Below, in pieces: positions 36,365 through 58,809 of a DNA stretch of 64,000 nt. Location of the stretch: NCBI GenBank assembly GCA_016182085.1, contig JACOYB010000005.1:66061-130060 (forward strand). Direction: 5' to 3'. The translations under genes were made by a program, and so were the position numbers. The first letter of the stretch is position 1. Every line of letters starts with the position of its first letter. The DNA is from Candidatus Magasanikiibacteriota bacterium (lineage in GTDB: Bacteria; Patescibacteriota; Patescibacteriia; Magasanikbacterales; GWA2-37-8). The notes beneath the pieces are model-generated. The model was not told where the DNA came from and ran no database searches. It saw only the letters and a program-made list of their open reading frames with translations.

Positions 36365-37210
36365 TTATTCAGGCACACAAGCATCATCTACTTCAACGAA
36401 CCCTCGTTTACAGTACCAACTTGATCCTAACACATAAGCGTTTGACGGTGCGATTACTTTCTCGCAAGAATTATTAACTTCCCTGTAGCCATTCTTACAA
36501 TACCAGCTTGAACCTAATATGTATGCATTCGGAGGGGCGATAACTTTTACACAAGAATCATTTTCTTCTTTATAGCCATTCTTACAATACCAGCTTGAAC
36601 CTAAAACATAGGCGTTCACTGGGGCAATTACCTTTTCACAACTATCGCCTACTTCTTTATATCCATTCTTGCAGTACCACTGAGAGCCTAAAATATATGC
36701 ATCTTTTGGGGCAATAACTTTTTCGCAAGTTTCACCGATCTGTTTGTAACCATTTTTACAATACCACTCTGAACCCAACACATAAGCGTTTAGAGGCGCT
36801 ATTACTTTCTCACAACTCTCGCCCACTTGCCTATACCCATTCTTACAATACCAATCGGATCCTAATACATAACCATTAGCAGGTGCTTTAACTTTTTCAC
36901 AGGTTTCATCAACTTGCTTATAACCATTCTTACATACCCAACCCATACCAGATGTTAATGCATTTTCTGGAACTTTCTTTAACGGACAATCATAACAGTC
37001 TTTATAATATCCGCTTGGTGGATACACAACTCCGCCACCGGCAGGATATGTTGGATATAAGCATGGATGTCCAGCATCTCCACATGTATAAGAACCAGTA
37101 TCAGAAGGACAGGAGTGCCAACGATGACAACCAGAGCGATGGGCAAAAGCAGGTGCTGATAAAGACAATACCCCTAATAAAACAACTAAAGCTAGTATGT
37201 ATTTTTTCAT
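36365..37210 (-). CDS. Secreted cysteine-rich tandem-repeat protein
   Basis: Signal peptide (AFA cleavage site). N-terminal HRSGCHRWHSCPSD motif. About 8 tandem ~27-aa repeats with consensus NAYVLGSxWYCKNGYxxVxxSCEKVIAP, two Cys per repeat. Confidence 0.7.
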   Translation of the reverse strand: MKKYILALVVLLGVLSLSAPAFAHRSGCHRWHSCPSDTGSYTCGDAGHPCLYPTYPAGGGVVYPPSGYYKDCYDCPLKKVPENALTSGMGWVCKNGYKQVDETCEKVKAPANGYVLGSDWYCKNGYRQVGESCEKVIAPLNAYVLGSEWYCKNGYKQIGETCEKVIAPKDAYILGSQWYCKNGYKEVGDSCEKVIAPVNAYVLGSSWYCKNGYKEENDSCVKVIAPPNAYILGSSWYCKNGYREVNNSCEKVIAPSNAYVLGSSWYCKRGFVEVDDACVPE

Positions 37211-37331
37211 AACTCTCTATTACGTTTATATTAAAATCCTATCAAAATTACTAAAATTTTACAATATTACAGTAAATCAGTTTTACCCTACCGAGCTCTA
37301 CTACCAAAAAAGAAAGCAAATAATAAATCGA

Positions 37332-37856
37332 CTAAAATGGTATTTCTTCTTTAACTGTAGGTACTAAATTTAAATTTTTCAAACGATACATCATCGCTTC
37401 CTTACTCACCTGATACTGCTCAGCTAGTTTTTTTAAACTTTCACCATTAACATACAAAGCATCTTTAACTTCTCTTTTAAAATCTTCTACTAAAAACTCT
37501 TCCGGCATTAAAAAATTGGCTGCAAAAAGGTCGGCTCTTTTTTCTTTTTGCGGTTTGTCTGTAAGTGATGTCTTATTTCTATAATCAACTGTTACAGTCT
37601 GATCTGTATCAAAAATAAAATGGGCTAACTCATGGGCTATAGTAAAGCGTATTCTGGATTGTCTTTCATCAGAATTAACCCCCATAAGAACTCCCCCATC
37701 TGATTTTCTGATTAAAACCCCTGAATACTCTTTACTGGGAGCGTAGCTTATATTTATCCCATATTGTGCCACGATATATTCAACAGGCACAGGTGCTTTT
37801 TTAATACCAAAACTATCTAAAATTTCTTTTGTTTTTTCAATAGTTAATTCTTTCAT
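37332..37856 (-). CDS. ImmA/IrrE family zinc metallopeptidase
   Basis: HELAHFIFD is an HEXXH motif. Paired directly with the upstream XRE regulator. Confidence 0.8.
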   Translation of the reverse strand: MKELTIEKTKEILDSFGIKKAPVPVEYIVAQYGINISYAPSKEYSGVLIRKSDGGVLMGVNSDERQSRIRFTIAHELAHFIFDTDQTVTVDYRNKTSLTDKPQKEKRADLFAANFLMPEEFLVEDFKREVKDALYVNGESLKKLAEQYQVSKEAMMYRLKNLNLVPTVKEEIPF

Positions 37857-37860
37857 ATTT

Positions 37861-38205
37861 TTATGCTATCCAACCTAAGATTTTCCCCCATTCTAAAATC
37901 TTCTCATCTTCACTCTTTATATTTTCTATATCAGTCTTACTTAGCGCAACACCTTCTAATCTTTTCGGAAAAAAACCTGACATCTCACACCCTAACAAGG
38001 AAGACAGCTTCCACAGAGTAACGCCGTTTACATTATTTCTGCCATTCTCTATTTGTGAATATGCAACCCTTGTCATGTTTAACGAATTGGCGATAGTTTG
38101 CATGCTTATTTTCCCTCTCAATTTTATGCGTGCAATTTTAATATTTTTAGCTATTTGCTCCTTTATTTCTTTATCCGCTAGATTGCTCATCTTCTTCTTT
38201 GCCAT
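37861..38205 (-). CDS. XRE family helix-turn-helix transcriptional regulator
   Basis: QTIANSLNMTRVAYSQIENGRNNVNGVTLWKLSSLLG is an HTH_3 motif. Confidence 0.8.
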   Translation of the reverse strand: MAKKKMSNLADKEIKEQIAKNIKIARIKLRGKISMQTIANSLNMTRVAYSQIENGRNNVNGVTLWKLSSLLGCEMSGFFPKRLEGVALSKTDIENIKSEDEKILEWGKILGWIA

Positions 38206-47156: not shown

Positions 47157-48110
47157 TTATGAAAGCACAAGCAACAATAAACCAAACGCAATAATAATTA
47201 TGGCCGCCGCCTTATGTATTACCTGCCGCCTGGTGAAAGTTTCTTTTAGAATAAATGGAAAGAATTTTGAAATAATAGCTACAAAAATAATAAGCAGAGC
47301 ATACTGCACCCCCGACATGGCGTTAACAAGCGATACGCTGCCAAGCGACATGGCATATTGCAATAAAATTGTAGCCACCACGCCCAAACCAACTCCCAAA
47401 CCAACAAACAATACTTGTTTCTTTTTCGGCATCTTTTCCGGGAGCGCATCTGGTTTTTTAATAAATAACGCGCGCACATCCGCGTTTAAGAGCAGCAGTG
47501 AAGCGGCAAAAATTCCGATGGGCAATTTTGTCCAAACAAAACCGCTAATAAAACCGTAGCTGTCAAAGGCATACTTGGAAGCAACGTGAGAAATAGCAAA
47601 CAAGAGTCCGGATAGTACAGCCCACCCCAAACCATCATGCCACATACCGGATGTTTGTTTTTTCTCAAACGAAATAATGAGGGAACCAAGAATTAAAAAT
47701 CCAGCGCCAATTAACGATTGCCCGGTTAATTGTTCGTATAAAAAAATCCGGCTGAGGAATAAAATAAAAAAAGGAGCTACGGCGCCGATAAGCGGACTGG
47801 CACGGCTTACTTCGCTTTCTTGGATCGCGTTATACATGGCCCATAAGGCAAAGAAGAAACATCCTCCGGAAATAATAAATATTAAATAATCGGTCCAGAC
47901 AGAGGGCATATAGACAAACCCAAACGGCAGGACAAGAAAAAATGCCAGGATAAAAATAGTGGAGTAAAAAACGAAAACAACCGGTTTGGAAACCGTTTTG
48001 GTAAGGATAAATTTATCGGTAACGCCCACGGCGGCCAAAACAGCATTCCCTAGTAGGGCTACAAGTATTGACATATATTGATTTAATAATTTTAACATTA
48101 AACCGCGCAA
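47157..48110 (-). CDS. EamA/DMT family transporter
   Basis: 317 aa, 10 predicted TM helices in two 5-TM halves. Confidence 0.6.
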   Translation of the reverse strand: MRGLMLKLLNQYMSILVALLGNAVLAAVGVTDKFILTKTVSKPVVFVFYSTIFILAFFLVLPFGFVYMPSVWTDYLIFIISGGCFFFALWAMYNAIQESEVSRASPLIGAVAPFFILFLSRIFLYEQLTGQSLIGAGFLILGSLIISFEKKQTSGMWHDGLGWAVLSGLLFAISHVASKYAFDSYGFISGFVWTKLPIGIFAASLLLLNADVRALFIKKPDALPEKMPKKKQVLFVGLGVGLGVVATILLQYAMSLGSVSLVNAMSGVQYALLIIFVAIISKFFPFILKETFTRRQVIHKAAAIIIIAFGLLLLVLS

Positions 48111-48130
48111 AGGGCAATTAAATTACGCGC

Positions 48131-48194
48131 TTGACAGAGCGCCCTAGTATGTTACAAATACAGTATCGCTTCCGCAGTATGGAAGCTGGAGGGG
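48131..48194 (+). promoter_or_regulatory. Putative promoter (TTGACA...TACAAA) and strong Shine-Dalgarno (GGAGGGG) of the GC-rich orphan gene
   Basis: TTGACA at 48131-48136, 16-nt spacer, TACAAA. GGAGGGG lies 4 nt upstream of the ATG at 48199. Confidence 0.3.
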
Positions 48195-48198
48195 AACC

Positions 48199-48618
48199 AT
48201 GTCCAAATCACAGGCCAAGCAGCTTGTAACTCCCGGGTTTGTACCGGTTCAGACTGCAACGTTGTTTCTCGGCCAATATGTGGTGGAGTTCTACGACCCG
48301 ATCTCTGACGAAGAGGATGGTCGTATTGACCTCCAGACAATCATTGGACGGGGTAATGAAGTAACCGTGGGCGCCACCATGAGCGAGGGGGATGCAAAGA
48401 AATTTGAAAGTCTGATGTTTAGCTATCCTGAACTGCATCTGCATCTTCGCGAAAAGCAGGTGATCTTTCCTGCTTCCAGCCCAAGGCCGGGATGTATTCG
48501 GTACTTTGAACTTGGGGAAGGCAATGATACATGGTACCATTATGCAGGGCCCATGGATACATGCCGAAAGGGTGTGTTGCTCGTTTGTATTTATGAGCCG
48601 GATGCCCCGAAAAACTAA
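48199..48618 (+). CDS. Hypothetical protein in a compositionally foreign (GC-rich) segment
   Basis: 139 aa ORF with a strong SD. Local GC is visibly far higher than the flanks (about 50% vs about 38%). No recognised motif. Confidence 0.55.
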   Translation: MSKSQAKQLVTPGFVPVQTATLFLGQYVVEFYDPISDEEDGRIDLQTIIGRGNEVTVGATMSEGDAKKFESLMFSYPELHLHLREKQVIFPASSPRPGCIRYFELGEGNDTWYHYAGPMDTCRKGVLLVCIYEPDAPKN

Positions 48619-48831
48619 CGAGAAGAACGACCCGTGAGTAACCGGTGGATTTTCGCAAAAACCAAGCGACAGTCCACCGGAGTTAAGTATTAAAATCTCT
48701 TTTCTCAATTTAGCGATTTTTCCTTTACATTAGCCAAAAAAATAACTTTAACCAAAAAAGCCTTTGCTCCTTGACAAAACCTCTAAAATATGGTATATTA
48801 TTTTGTTAATTTTATAATTAACCATAATCAT

Positions 48832-49992
48832 ATGCGCATAGCCATGATCGGACAAAAAGGCGTCCCGGCAATATATGGCGGCATAGAACGTCATGTGGAG
48901 GAATTGTCGGTAGAATTGGCCAAACAAGGCCACGACGTTTTTGTATACGCTCGCGAATGGTTTACTGATAAAAAGATTAAAAAATACCAAGGGGTCAATA
49001 TAATTCACACCCCTACTTTACGCACCAAACATTTGGATGCAATTGTGCATACACTCACTTCCACCATTCACGCACTCATACAAAAACCTGATGTAATTCA
49101 TTATCACGGCGTTGGTCCAGCCTTGCTTAGCTGGATTCCAAGACTTTTTTCTTCAAAAATTAAAGTGGTAGTAACCATGCACTGTCTTGATCGTTACCAC
49201 CAAAAATGGGGATTTTTTGCCCGCTTCATGCTTCGTGTTGGCGAATGGGCCGGATGCACGTTTGCCCACCAAGCGATTTCAGTTTCTAAAACCATTCAAG
49301 GTTATTGTTTGAATGAATACCGCACGTCTACAACGTATATCCCCAATGGCATCAAAACTAACGAACACCAAAATTATTCGTTAATTGACCAGTGGAACCT
49401 TACGCCGCAAAAATATATTTTGATGGTTTCCCGTTTGGTAAAACATAAAGGCGCCCATTACTTGTTGGAGGCTTGGCAAATTGCCCGCCAACAAAATCCA
49501 GAGCTTCTAAAAGATTATAAATTAGCTATAGTTGGCGACGCTGTATTTACGGATGATTATGTTGCCAAGTTGCGACAAATTGCTCGCGGTGATAACAGTG
49601 TTGTATTCACCGGCTGGCAGAAAAGCCAAGAGTTAGCTGAACTATATGATAACACCACTCTGCTTGTGCACCCTTCGGAAAATGAAGGTTTGCCTATAAC
49701 CATATTACAAGCCATGTCATACGCCAAACCAGTACTTGTTTCAGATATTGCCGAGCACAAAGAAGTAGTAAGCGATGAGGATTTCTGGTTTAGCAATACC
49801 GATGTATATTCTTTGGCGGAAAAAATTGCCGAACTTATTCAAAAACCTGAATTACTAAAAGAAAAAGGCAAAGCCAATAAAATCCTGGTGGAAAAAAATT
49901 ATAGATGGGAAGATATCGCCAAACAAACAATTGCAATCTATTCTTCTATAAACACCGACACGCTCAAAAAACTTCAAGCTTTACGAGCTTAA
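48832..49992 (+). CDS. GT4 (group 1) glycosyltransferase
   Basis: MRIAMIGQKGVPAIYGGIERHVEEL N-terminus. LVHPSENEGLPITILQAMSYAKPVLVSDIAEHKEVV is an E-X7-E motif. Start trimmed to the Met of MRIAMIG. Confidence 0.8.
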   Translation: MRIAMIGQKGVPAIYGGIERHVEELSVELAKQGHDVFVYAREWFTDKKIKKYQGVNIIHTPTLRTKHLDAIVHTLTSTIHALIQKPDVIHYHGVGPALLSWIPRLFSSKIKVVVTMHCLDRYHQKWGFFARFMLRVGEWAGCTFAHQAISVSKTIQGYCLNEYRTSTTYIPNGIKTNEHQNYSLIDQWNLTPQKYILMVSRLVKHKGAHYLLEAWQIARQQNPELLKDYKLAIVGDAVFTDDYVAKLRQIARGDNSVVFTGWQKSQELAELYDNTTLLVHPSENEGLPITILQAMSYAKPVLVSDIAEHKEVVSDEDFWFSNTDVYSLAEKIAELIQKPELLKEKGKANKILVEKNYRWEDIAKQTIAIYSSINTDTLKKLQALRA

Positions 49993-55444: not shown

Positions 55445-55463
55445 ATTAAAAATACATTTTATT

Positions 55464-57203
55464 TTAACCGGAAACAACGTCTTCAAACTTATAGGCCTGG
55501 TAAATGCCACCCTTTCCTAACGCCGCTGTTTTTATAGATACAGAAAATAAATTTTTTTCTGTTATAATTTTTTGAACCTGTCTTACGCTGACTTTCAATT
55601 TATTTGCGATTGTTTTTATTGGACCCCAATGCTCATTAGAAGAGGGGCTGATATAAAACCCTCTCCATTCTCCCTGAGCCTCCACTTGTTTTGCTTCTCT
55701 AAGTTCTATAATTCTAGAGACACCGGATATATCTTCGTACTTATACGCCTCTACTACCTTCTGATTGAAAATATTCTTACTTTGGAAGCTGTGTTCTTCA
55801 ATTAATTTTTTAATGAGTTTGCCGCTTATTTGCAGCTTTGCAGACAAAACATTAATTGAAGCCCAGTGATCACTCTTCTCATCAACATAAAACCCTTCCC
55901 AATCTCCAGATACTTCTGCTTTAGGAATAGAAATTCGTTCTTTTATCAGGTCATTTTCTGATATTAGCTCATATGGATATACAACTGCCTTCATATTTGG
56001 AGGACAGCGAACTATTTTTGATACCAAATTCACACCTTGGCTTTTTATAATTTCTTCTACAAACTTATAACTAATTTCTAATTTATTAGCTAGTACTAGA
56101 ACTGTGCCAAAATGATTGCCGGTTTCTGGATCTATCCAAAAATTTTTCCATTCACCCGCTTTTTCCACTATAGGCAACTCTAGAATTTCTCTGACCGCTG
56201 GCAATTTAACCACGTCCTCATAAGCATACGCATTCACAAATTTTCCACCCTTTCTACGTCTAATTTCTTTAATATGAATGGTTGCCATAGCCATTAAACT
56301 ACTAAGAAAATCTTTTGATAATCCTAATTTATCTGCGATGATATTTAAAGCAGCATAATGCTTATTTGTATCCGGGTCTATCCAAAAACCTTCCCATTCA
56401 CCCGCGTCGTCTACCTGCGGCGATTCAAGATATTTTTTAACTTCTGCGGTATTTATAAAGTCTTCAAAAGAATAAGCTGCTCTTTTATGGCCAAAAACAT
56501 CCACAACAATTTTTTTCTCCAATTCTAGAGAAACAGCCATATCACTCAGGCTGCGGTAACTTCTTTTATAGGTTGCTTTTTTTATAATAGTTGTAATTGG
56601 CCCCCAGTGTTTGCCTTCCTGATCTGTCCAAAATCCTTTCCAAGGATCTAGTTCAATTTTTGATACTTGGGGCAATTCTTGGTCATTTTCAAAAGAGTCG
56701 CCCGGCGACAATTGAAGCTCTTTAAAATCTTCGTATAGCAGGCTTTCCAGTATAGCTGCCCATTTTGGCCCTTGAATAAACCTTTGTCCTGCCTGACGGT
56801 TTTGAAGTAAAAAAGTATTTTTCTCTTCTTTTGACATTGTATTAACATCGGGCACATTGACTCCGAGTTCTTGCAGATGAGCCATATCAAAAACATAACT
56901 TGCATTCCCTTCCTCATCACACACTTGTACGATTCTATTAATTTTTTCAATGACAACTGTTATATAACTAGTTTTTCTAATCATTTCTGGCGATATTTCT
57001 CCTTCAAAAATTTGGATATCGTCAAGTTCTATGCCATTATTTTGAAGCGTGTAAAGCAGAGTTTTCAATCTGTTTTTTAAATCTGCTTTTTCAAATTCTC
57101 CTTTTCCTCTAACAATCCCGTGTTTGATTGCGTCAGGCGGAGTTATGACCTGTCCAATCAGTTGGGTCTGGGTACGAATATAATCTAGTATCAATATTAT
57201 CAA
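55464..57203 (-). CDS. Tandem-repeat protein with 5-6 copies of an uncharacterised ~70-aa module (acidic W-rich hairpin plus HTH-like helix pair)
   Basis: Repeats GEWEGFWIDPDTNKHYAALNIIADKLGLS, GEWKNFWIDPETGNHFGTVLVLANKLEISYKFVEEI, GDWEGFYVDEKSDHWASINVLSAKLQISGKLIKKLIE, GEWRGFYISPSSNEHWGPIKTIANKLKVSVRQVQKII and GFWTDQEGKHWGPITTIIKKA. Confidence 0.6.
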   Translation of the reverse strand: MIILILDYIRTQTQLIGQVITPPDAIKHGIVRGKGEFEKADLKNRLKTLLYTLQNNGIELDDIQIFEGEISPEMIRKTSYITVVIEKINRIVQVCDEEGNASYVFDMAHLQELGVNVPDVNTMSKEEKNTFLLQNRQAGQRFIQGPKWAAILESLLYEDFKELQLSPGDSFENDQELPQVSKIELDPWKGFWTDQEGKHWGPITTIIKKATYKRSYRSLSDMAVSLELEKKIVVDVFGHKRAAYSFEDFINTAEVKKYLESPQVDDAGEWEGFWIDPDTNKHYAALNIIADKLGLSKDFLSSLMAMATIHIKEIRRRKGGKFVNAYAYEDVVKLPAVREILELPIVEKAGEWKNFWIDPETGNHFGTVLVLANKLEISYKFVEEIIKSQGVNLVSKIVRCPPNMKAVVYPYELISENDLIKERISIPKAEVSGDWEGFYVDEKSDHWASINVLSAKLQISGKLIKKLIEEHSFQSKNIFNQKVVEAYKYEDISGVSRIIELREAKQVEAQGEWRGFYISPSSNEHWGPIKTIANKLKVSVRQVQKIITEKNLFSVSIKTAALGKGGIYQAYKFEDVVSG

Positions 57204-57369
57204 CTGTGAGTTCTCGCTGAAGAATCTTATCCAACTGTGTTTTAAACTGTTCTTTATTCCTGAGATAATCGCTCTTAACAGATAAATCTCGTTGCGCTGT
57301 CATCTCTTCTGGTAATTTACCTGGCCTGTCACCCATACAAGTAATTAATAAATAAACTACACAGTATAA

Positions 57370-58809
57370 TTATTTTATCTCCCGCACCTCAACCAAATTC
57401 ACATGTCCCGCGTGCCCAACCGGCTCGCCGGCTACGACCACCATCTGATCTCCGGTTTTGCCAAGCTTATTTTTCTTTATATACGCAATAGACCGTTCTA
57501 CTAATTCTTCAATGGATTGGCAAGGTTCCAAAATAAACGGTACTACGCCCCAAGATAAATTGAGTTGTCTTTGCACTCTTTGGCTGCTGGTACCGACCAG
57601 AATAGACAAAGGCGGACGCACATGGCTAATAAGCCGGCCAGTTTCTCCGGAAAGAGAGGCGGCTAAAATTATCTTTGCTTTTACTTCTTCAGCCAAGATA
57701 CGGGACAGCTCGGTTATGGCTACTTCCATAGTTGTGCCGCTTTTATGAACGCCCGGTAAAACGGTATCGTCATAATGCGATTTTTCGGTATTAGCGATTA
57801 TTTCGGCCATAGTTTCTACTACCAAAACCGGATGTTTGCCTACCGCTGTTTCGTTGGACAACATGAGCGTGTCGGCATGATCTATAACCGCATTGGCCAC
57901 ATCGCTGACTTCGGCTCTGGTGGGACGGCGATTCTCCCGCATAGAATCCAGCATTTGCGTGGCCACAATTACCGGTTTTGCCAAACTATTGGCTTCGTCT
58001 ATGATTTTCTTTTGCGCGAGCGGTACTTCGGACGCATGCATTTCCAGACCCAAATCTCCACGCGCGACCATCACTCCGTCGCTGGCATCTAAAATTTCTT
58101 TTAGATTATCTACAGCTACTCGCCTTTCTATTTTGGCAATGATATGAAGCGGCGGCTGATTTTTTATTCCCAACTCGCTTTCAAATTGTTTTATTAAAAA
58201 TCGCAAATCCAGAATATCTTTGGCGCTGCGCACAAAAGACATGGCTACCAAATCTACTCCTTGTTCCAAACCAAACTTCAAATCATTTTTATCTTTAACA
58301 TCGAGAGTCTCCACATCCAAATCACTATCTGGAAAATTTAAACCTTTATGGGAAAAAATTAAACTGCCTTCTACAACCTCACCTGTTATTTTTGTGCCTT
58401 CCACACTTTTTACCTTTATCTCAATATGTCCGTCATCTACCAAAATTCTATGGCCCGCTTCTATAAATTTATGTAAGTTTTTATAATCCACCGGAATAAT
58501 TCCGTCCTTATACTCTGCCAAAGAAGTATCTAAAACCACTTCTCCGCCCACTTTAATTGGCGCGCCTTCATCCGGCATTTTTCCTACGCGTATTTTCGGC
58601 CCTTGTAAATCCTGCATGATTGCCAGCGGCTCACCTGTTTCTTCTTCTACTTTTCTTAAATTTTTTATCAAAACGGCGTGGCTGGAGTAATCACCATGAG
58701 AAAAATTTAACCTCGCAATGTTCATGCCGGCTTTTACCATATCTGTAAGCCTGGCAATATCCTGACAAGCCGGACCAATCGTGGCGCAAATTTTTGTTTT
58801 CTTAAACAT
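57370..58809 (-). CDS. pyk: Pyruvate kinase
   Basis: KTKICATIGPA...MVARGDLG, canonical PK motifs. 479 aa. Confidence 0.95.
   Translation of the reverse strand: MFKKTKICATIGPACQDIARLTDMVKAGMNIARLNFSHGDYSSHAVLIKNLRKVEEETGEPLAIMQDLQGPKIRVGKMPDEGAPIKVGGEVVLDTSLAEYKDGIIPVDYKNLHKFIEAGHRILVDDGHIEIKVKSVEGTKITGEVVEGSLIFSHKGLNFPDSDLDVETLDVKDKNDLKFGLEQGVDLVAMSFVRSAKDILDLRFLIKQFESELGIKNQPPLHIIAKIERRVAVDNLKEILDASDGVMVARGDLGLEMHASEVPLAQKKIIDEANSLAKPVIVATQMLDSMRENRRPTRAEVSDVANAVIDHADTLMLSNETAVGKHPVLVVETMAEIIANTEKSHYDDTVLPGVHKSGTTMEVAITELSRILAEEVKAKIILAASLSGETGRLISHVRPPLSILVGTSSQRVQRQLNLSWGVVPFILEPCQSIEELVERSIAYIKKNKLGKTGDQMVVVAGEPVGHAGHVNLVEVREIK

Follow-up and report, generated by a model that had tools for sequence, protein, structure and literature searches.

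Prophage morons, reported by Hendrix and colleagues from lambdoid phages, are said to be autonomous promoter-gene-terminator units placed between conserved genes. Two other kinds of small genetic unit invite comparison here: ORFans in compositional islets, i.e. genes with no detectable homologue outside a narrow lineage, and the gene cassettes of integrons. ORFans tend, in most genomes, to exceed their host in AT content. The locus discussed here is in a stretch of 64,000 nt, termed the window, from a Candidatus Magasanikiibacteriota bacterium (GenBank assembly GCA_016182085.1, contig JACOYB010000005.1, positions 66,061 to 130,060 of the forward strand). Between a gene for an EamA-family transporter and one for a GT4 glycosyltransferase there is a GC-rich segment with a 139-codon open reading frame (ORF), termed ORF139. 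This segment is probably best viewed as an acquired, self-contained orphan transcription unit that encodes a weakly constrained protein. The features of the locus are listed below.

47157–48074, minus strand: EamA-family transporter gene, the ancestral left flank (Pfam EamA, E=3.6e-13)
48089–48117, minus strand: EamA promoter-like site from the promoter scan, TTGCCC-17-TAAAAT with TG, part of the ancestral spacer
48120–48705, no strand assigned: GC-rich inserted segment of ~586 bp, absent from all outgroups
48131–48158, plus strand: promoter-like box of the cassette, read from the sequence, with TTGACA at 48131–48136, a 16-nt spacer and TACAAA at 48153–48158
48168–48186, plus strand: 5′ leader stem-loop of 7 bp with a 5-nt loop, directly before the Shine-Dalgarno (SD) sequence (RNAalifold pairs)
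48188–48194, plus strand: SD sequence GGAGGGG, read from the sequence, with GGAGG 6 nt before the ATG
48199–48618, plus strand: ORF139, 139 codons (NCBI MBI2037851.1, HYT15_02880, annotated as hypothetical protein)
48208–48708, minus strand: antisense ORF of 166 aa, a shadow of ORF139 with its codons in exact register, and not considered a gene
48642–48680, plus strand: terminator-like 3′ stem-loop, an inverted repeat with 15-nt arms and a 9-nt loop, then an interrupted T-rich tract
48706–48799, plus strand: ancestral spacer resuming with the TTAGCCAAAA element and then the GT4 promoter, homologous to spacers of L042, L046, L012, L013 and others
48771–48799, plus strand: GT4 promoter TTGACA-17-TATATT with TG (promoter scan, 11/12 matches)
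48832–49992, plus strand: GT4 glycosyltransferase gene, the ancestral right flank (Pfam Glycos_transf_1, E=5e-31; Glyco_transf_4, E=7e-25)

The unit resembles a moron in being a single small gene of deviant composition with promoter-like and terminator-like signals of its own, separating two genes that lie side by side in relatives. It is also dispensable, as judged by its absence from relatives. The surroundings differ, however. The flanks are the conserved chromosomal EamA and GT4 genes, with no phage proteins or PHROGs matches nearby, and because the unit is not in a prophage it does not belong among the morons. As to the autonomous signals, the promoter-like box and the 3′ hairpin are both conserved and neither is a canonical match. 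An earlier note on this DNA had pointed to a promoter-like box. The box is indeed present, and it is unchanged in three diverged genomes that could be aligned (the window and the related loci L002 and L001), but it agrees only partly with the consensus and is not listed by a strict promoter scanner. Its last three spacer bases (48150–48152) form a TGn extended −10 element. The 3′ stem-loop is likewise invariant in the three genomes, and the scan does not class it as a canonical terminator. In the 5′ leader stem-loop, the sole substitution is in the loop.

ORFans in compositional islets offer further resemblances. ORF139 is confined to a narrow clade, is short, evolves fast (ratio of nonsynonymous to synonymous rates, dN/dS, of ~0.5), has atypical GC and codons and is annotated as hypothetical. 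It departs from the usual ORFan in being GC-richer than an AT-rich host and in having a strong SD sequence in an SD-poor genome. Integron cassettes are also discrete units with a single small ORF, and as discussed below, unrelated units are found at this one site in the window and in two relatives, L012 and L073. In addition, an imperfect palindrome past the stop codon of ORF139 is followed by GTTAAGT (48682–48688), a loose 7-mer match to GTTRRRY. Unlike an integron cassette, the unit stands alone and not in an array, and it brings a promoter box with it; the L073 unit is on the opposite strand, and neither an integrase nor attI is found in the ~12.8 kb examined of the L001 locus (an EamA side of ~2.4 kb and a GT4 side of ~10 kb). 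By the criteria of promoter, array and integrase, an integron-cassette reading was rejected, as the likeness to a core site is only loose and the unit is single, with its own promoter box and no integrase nearby.

A horizontally acquired islet can be recognized by composition and codon usage that deviate from the host, by absence from the intact orthologous site in close relatives, which indicates gain and not loss, and by an identifiable donor or mobility gene. Deviation of composition and codon usage is clear. GC content is 0.491 at 48120–48700, 0.49–0.50 over the full ~586 bp of 48120–48705 and 0.495 in ORF139 alone, vs. a mean of 0.392 for the window (z=3.1 in 550-bp windows, sd 0.034). 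The insert is the second-highest GC peak in the 64 kb; the highest is a tRNA-Thr/tRNA-Gly pair near 41.7 kb, and the third, near 57.5 kb, is inside the pyruvate kinase gene. The tetranucleotide distance between insert and window has z=3.0 (rank 8 of 634 windows). Thus the jump in GC described in the earlier note is real, and both the GC profile and the tetranucleotide calculation that it proposed as checks show a deviation. The GC content at third codon positions of ORF139 is 0.518 (z=3.3), above the maximum of 0.46 in the 47 other genes (length-matched P=0.003), and no other window gene deviates as far in synonymous codon usage (z=−2.97).

The SD sequence is also out of place. Within 20 nt of the start, an SD-like motif is missing in 28 of the 50 long ORFs of the window, and GGAGG is found in only two, ORF139 and one other; the SD sequence had rightly been called strong and unlike that of most neighbours. 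The anti-SD motif was found in only 48% of Parcubacteria 16S genes (PMC9297842), a low rate that fits an SD-poor host. No rRNA genes are present in the window or in the loci fetched for comparison. Many window genes, GT4 included, begin a few tens of bases past a consensus promoter.

Comparison with relatives was anchored on GT4 and covers 72 loci from one-genome-per-species collections, which place the lineage in Candidatus Magasanikbacteria. The EamA-GT4 adjacency is syntenic across about 50 Magasanikbacteria genomes. Four independent assemblies, those of the window and of L001, L002 and L003, have the insert in the EamA/ORF/GT4 position, and it is therefore not an assembly artefact; EamA is called at 304–305 aa in L001–L003. 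In a tblastn search over the GT4-anchored loci, ORF139 was confined to the clade of the window. The spacer between EamA and GT4 measures 757 bp in the window, vs. 142–295 bp with ~30% GC in L005, L010, L007, L008, L013 and L046. These empty outgroup spacers are intact and hold the two promoters only. The window spacer aligns to other species only at 48075–48119 and from about 48706 on, and the EamA promoter-like site is homologous to ATTTTACCAT/GGCAA motifs that adjoin EamA in outgroup spacers. In a neighbour-joining tree of GT4 the ORF139 clade is nested in the empty-site genomes, with L005 as sister, followed outward by L010, then L007/L008/L013 and then L046. Since sites are empty in successive outgroups, the parsimonious reading is that the unit was gained once, on the branch that leads to the clade of the window. 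The intact orthologous sites of close relatives thus appear to lack the unit because it was gained, not lost.

With respect to age, the cassette DNA is 94–96% identical within the clade, and the genomes are ~85–95% identical to the window elsewhere. L001 is 85–95% identical to the window over shared DNA and has kept the cassette at 94%, so the gain is not strain-recent; it predates the split of at least two or three lineages that are ~90% identical in DNA. Thus, of the recently acquired foreign cassette that the earlier note proposed, the foreign insertion is favoured by the atypical GC, codons and SD sequence and by the empty outgroup sites, but recency holds only relative to the outgroups. 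The note had suggested presence and absence in related genomes as a check and had taken conservation in synteny across relatives as a sign against acquisition. The unit is absent from outgroups, but its synteny is kept within the clade, which partly goes against the note.

Synonymous divergence from L001 is uneven across the neighbours (dS of 0.28–0.33 in EamA, 0.098 in GT4 and 0.08–0.14 in ORF139), a pattern suggestive of recombination, or of a recent sweep, that spared EamA and covered the cassette and GT4.

ORF139 is an orphan at every level of search. A word-indexed search of 5.8 billion clusters found two proteins at 89–91% identity, and an exhaustive phmmer (HMMER) search of 1.84 billion representatives returned only its own cluster. 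Only three distinct sequences, ~90% identical, are present among about 15 billion. Pfam, NCBIfam, PHROGs, PADLOC and PDB profiles have no match, and phage and plasmid records yielded none by tblastn; viral and metagenome contigs, scanned by back-translation, gave nothing real. The single metagenome match, L076, was a false positive, and the true frame there is that of cytochrome oxidase subunit I. With no homologue detectable outside a narrow lineage, ORF139 appears to be an ORFan in the strict sense, and the family, cluster and profile searches agree with the earlier description of an orphan 139-aa gene with no recognizable motif.

The predicted product is acidic (pI 5.0) and has no transmembrane segment (maximum 19-residue hydropathy 1.0). 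A toxin-antitoxin or toxin-immunity pair was considered, as the earlier note had guessed at a toxin or immunity gene, and was rejected: the ORF is single and lacks a partner gene, its predicted product is not hydrophobic, and PADLOC and Pfam have no match. The guess of a phage-derived gene fares no better, with no match in PHROGs, in phage or plasmid records or in viral contigs.

The explanation favoured here, which has the better part of the probability though by no means all of it, is as follows. The unit would comprise a sigma-70-like promoter, a 5′ stem-loop, a strong SD sequence, the 139-codon ORF and a 3′ stem-loop. It would have come from a GC-richer, SD-using source in one insertion between the back-to-back EamA and GT4 promoters, in an ancestor of a small Magasanikbacteria clade. 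The protein made would most likely be small, acidic and soluble, located in the cytoplasm and weakly constrained, an accessory orphan restricted to this lineage. As to its role, a dispensable accessory or conflict-type protein is the best guess, and a speculative one.

A rival reading is that the segment is non-functional passenger DNA, i.e. a foreign GC-rich fragment in a permissive intergenic site with an ORF that is fortuitous or a decaying remnant and makes no useful protein. Against it, the promoter-like box, the SD sequence, the ATG and both hairpins are unchanged in the three genomes, which have 38 differences among the first 399 positions of the ORF. These signals may work, and the ORF may be translated into a protein with a function. 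Of all six frames, that of ORF139 comes closest to a protein in amino-acid composition, at the 28th percentile of true gene chunks; its first codon positions are rich in G and its second in A. Shuffles seldom yield an ORF of 139 codons or more (P=0.05), and dN/dS, at ~0.55, is below 1. Within the ORF, L001 has an in-frame gain of 3 nt near the C-terminus, whereas just past the stop codon it has a loss of 2 nt. The 38 substitutions (19 at third, 8 at first and 11 at second codon positions) have left the frame open. Streamlined genomes of the Candidate Phyla Radiation (CPR) rarely retain 590 bp of junk through speciation, and this also counts against passenger DNA. ORF139 is probably a translated gene under weak constraint, to judge from these patterns.

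Several results weigh against the favoured explanation, and some of them favour the passenger reading. In permutations of the three genomes that keep the substitution spectrum, ORF139 has 14 synonymous changes vs. 11.0 expected (P=0.19) and no stops vs. 1.0 expected (P=0.35), so that the open frame is weak evidence, and replacements are no more conservative than random. Substitutions are thus indistinguishable from random placement in the frame; purifying selection is not statistically demonstrable, and near-neutral evolution would look the same. The dN/dS of ORF139 is 0.53–0.56, vs. 0.09–0.10 for EamA and 0.067 for GT4. A long ORF is open on the opposite strand too, as expected for GC-richer, stop-poor DNA. 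Along with the lack of a homologue, AlphaFold2 with the 3-sequence alignment gives no confident fold (predicted local distance difference test score of 37.6), which makes fold matches to the model meaningless. The −10 element is imperfect and the terminator non-canonical by scan. As to how the segment arrived, its ends have no terminal repeats or target-site duplication above chance, only short AT-rich matches; no integrase, transposase or recombinase is among the 14 genes called on L001, and neither donor nor integration scar was found. No donor can be named because ORF139 has no homologue anywhere searched. The islet is therefore without an identifiable donor or mobility gene. With all this, passenger DNA is a possible but clearly less probable account than that of an acquired orphan unit.

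GC-rich intergenic islands in AT-rich genomes are often structured RNAs, and one may ask whether the segment is a structured non-coding RNA in which the ORF is incidental. Its GC rises to a level comparable with the tRNA locus, the plus strand folds better than shuffles (z=−3.2), and in more distant relatives a unit in the same spacer (family B, described below) has a long-range helix with proven covariation. Nevertheless, Rfam has nothing at gathering threshold in the whole window and only chance-level snoRNA, miRNA and leader matches at E<=10 in the insert region, where ARAGORN also found nothing. RNAalifold on the three genomes predicts 171 pairs, none of which is compensatory and 11 of which are broken, with a positive covariation term; only the 5′ and 3′ hairpins are invariant among the predicted structures. 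The family-B motifs are absent from the window, the SD sequence and ATG of ORF139 are ideally spaced, and the substitutions in ORF139 lean to third codon positions. With no Rfam match and no covariation, the insert is not a recognizable RNA, and the RNA explanation is very improbable. Even less credence can be given to the proposal that the real gene is the 166-aa antisense ORF (48208–48708, minus strand). No other stretch of the insert runs as long without a stop (P=0.01 in shuffles), and the antisense ORF is intact at 166 aa in L002, but it is shortened to 156 aa in L001, starts with TTG after a poor SD sequence and has the exact codon register with ORF139 that is typical of a shadow ORF. 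Its synonymous changes are depleted (8 vs. 12.3 expected), its amino-acid composition is poorer than that of ORF139, and homologue and family searches were negative. It was rejected both as a real gene and as a remnant of a known one, as it has neither homologues nor constraint in frame.

If the acquired orphan unit is what it appears to be, the locus is a clean, datable case of the arrival of an orphan, in which a complete unit entered an empty intergenic site, was kept through speciation and evolves in an almost neutral fashion. This is of interest for CPR/Patescibacteria, in whose small, streamlined genomes a large proportion of the genes is nevertheless hypothetical. A strong SD sequence in an SD-poor lineage would be a marker of foreign origin and could be used to trace the accessory pool of these uncultured bacteria genome-wide, and perhaps their phages or donors. 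By itself, ORF139 is one more hypothetical protein; the feature is real, its kind is already familiar and the gene had already been annotated as hypothetical.

Two relatives have other mini-genes in the same spacer. The L012 unit (L012:5318–6000) has TTGACA, AAGGAGG, a GC-rich ORF of 105 codons on the plus strand (L012c) and a terminator. The L073 unit (L073:5271–6000) is on the opposite (minus) strand, with TTGACA-17-TAAATT, AAGGAGG and a 127-codon ORF that encodes 8 Cys (L073c). Neither L012c nor L073c has a family match, and L012c has no viral match. L073c is a strict orphan, with one 98%-identical relative in the 5.8 billion clusters. The units of the window, L012 and L073 are mutually unrelated and alike in design: a TTGACA −35 element, a strong AAGGAGG or GGAGG SD sequence in an SD-poor genome, a GC-rich ORF of 105–139 codons and a terminator hairpin. 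Absence of homologues elsewhere holds for ORF139 and L073c, the two that were searched. The density of strong-SD ORFs in the EamA-GT4 spacer is ~2.5 times that elsewhere in the loci (0.50 vs. 0.20 per kb). Specificity for this site is nevertheless only suggestive, because similar GC-rich, SD-led small ORFs occur elsewhere in the genomes. That orphan mini-genes, ready for expression, have repeatedly landed in the EamA-GT4 spacer of Magasanikbacteria is, on present evidence, unlikely. Were it true, it would imply a capture mechanism not recognized so far, or a common GC-rich, SD-using mobile gene pool, e.g. CPR phages, from which orphan genes enter the streamlined CPR genomes.

Small ORFs of 59–68% GC with strong SD sequences are found at L024:7259–7699, L031:7261–7704, L029:7437–7946, L062:625–1059 and L044:10004–10474, and some GC-rich SD-led small ORFs are just downstream of GT4. 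Several have N-termini that resemble signal peptides or those of lipoproteins, as do similar ORFs at L024:11548–11946 and L031:11562–11960. Accessory genes that are GC-rich and SD-using thus appear to form a general class in these AT-rich genomes.

The sister genome of L012, L043, has flanks that are 93–95% identical to those of L012, and the visible GC-rich part before their common terminator differs; L043 may have another cassette framed by the same flanking sequences. A run of N is present in its spacer (L043:5664–5762, spacer positions 61–159), and for this reason L012 and L043 were dropped as a clean presence/absence pair. In L073, a palindromic element of ~100 bp (L073:5290–5395, TGTCATTGCGAGGAGCCGTAGCGACGCGGCAATCC...CTCGCAATGACA) between EamA and its promoter resembles a repeat of the miniature inverted-repeat transposable element or repetitive extragenic palindromic type. 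A 99-aa ORF of a high-GC viral contig (IMGVR_UViG_3300038468_000223, L077:3995–4294) has a zinc-ribbon motif in common with L073c, the N-terminal VRYQCEIC..Y..PA.A..CEA, with 57% identity over 30 aa. This likeness is a weak hint that some cassettes may be phage-related.

In more distant relatives the spacer holds either a folD-like gene or the unit termed family B. Family B is found in ten of the more distant Magasanikbacteria, immediately upstream of EamA and on the strand of EamA. The loci are given below.

L047:5022–5700, minus strand: family B
L015:2900–3660: family B
L018:3904–4660: family B
L019:3978–4740: family B
L020:3780–4540: family B
L021:4115–4870: family B
L022:3107–3870: family B
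L023:580–1340: family B
L029:4245–5000: family B
L039:3667–4430: family B

The ends of family B pair in the minimum free energy fold of all ten sequences, forming a 12-bp helix in which 5′ AGAGUAGyGyGC pairs with 3′ GCrCrCUACUCU, with double-sided compensatory changes at two positions. Enclosed by this helix are a long hairpin that covaries and a GNRA-type hairpin fused to a GGAGG SD sequence. The ATG is at the same aligned position in 10/10, and the ORF is fast-evolving, with 68–129 codons, 55–76% GC and an in-frame VG[EK]E.P[LF] motif. No Rfam family corresponds to family B. An mRNA with paired ends around a small ORF would be reminiscent of fold-back-controlled mRNAs, and family B may be more interesting than the ORF139 cassette.

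These properties raise the question of whether the ORF139 unit is not a foreign acquisition but a very diverged, inverted derivative of family B. The two occupy the same spacer, are GC-rich with a fast-evolving small ORF, and have a common layout of a hairpin fused to GGAGG, ~6 nt and then ATG-TC. Family B differs, however, in being on EamA's strand and in having the covarying 12-bp helix and conserved RNA motifs. Protein and DNA profiles of family B have no match to the window, where the most conserved family-B motifs are absent. The family-B proteins look Pro/Ser/Arg-rich and disordered, and the composition of ORF139 is globular-like. Moreover, all intervening outgroups have empty spacers. 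Descent from family B is thus highly unlikely, and an acquired orphan unit is preferred here as well.

Two other sites in the window have accessory or variable content. At 36365–38205 there is a low-GC (30–33%) accessory patch that is a tetranucleotide outlier. It encodes a secreted protein of 281 aa with about seven Cys-containing repeats (WYCKNGY..V...CEKVIAP.NAYVLGS), which is followed by an ImmA/IrrE-like peptidase (HELAH, 174 aa) and a helix-turn-helix protein (114 aa). Pairs of such a peptidase and a helix-turn-helix protein are typical of mobile-element regulation modules. The second site is between the genes for serine hydroxymethyltransferase (SHMT) and pyruvate kinase and differs between the window (55452–57371) and L001 (L001:9609–10470). 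L001 has a gene there for a 260-aa protein with an ART-PolyVal domain, and the window has ~1.9 kb that is unaligned by blastn and includes a long minus-strand ORF (55464–57203).

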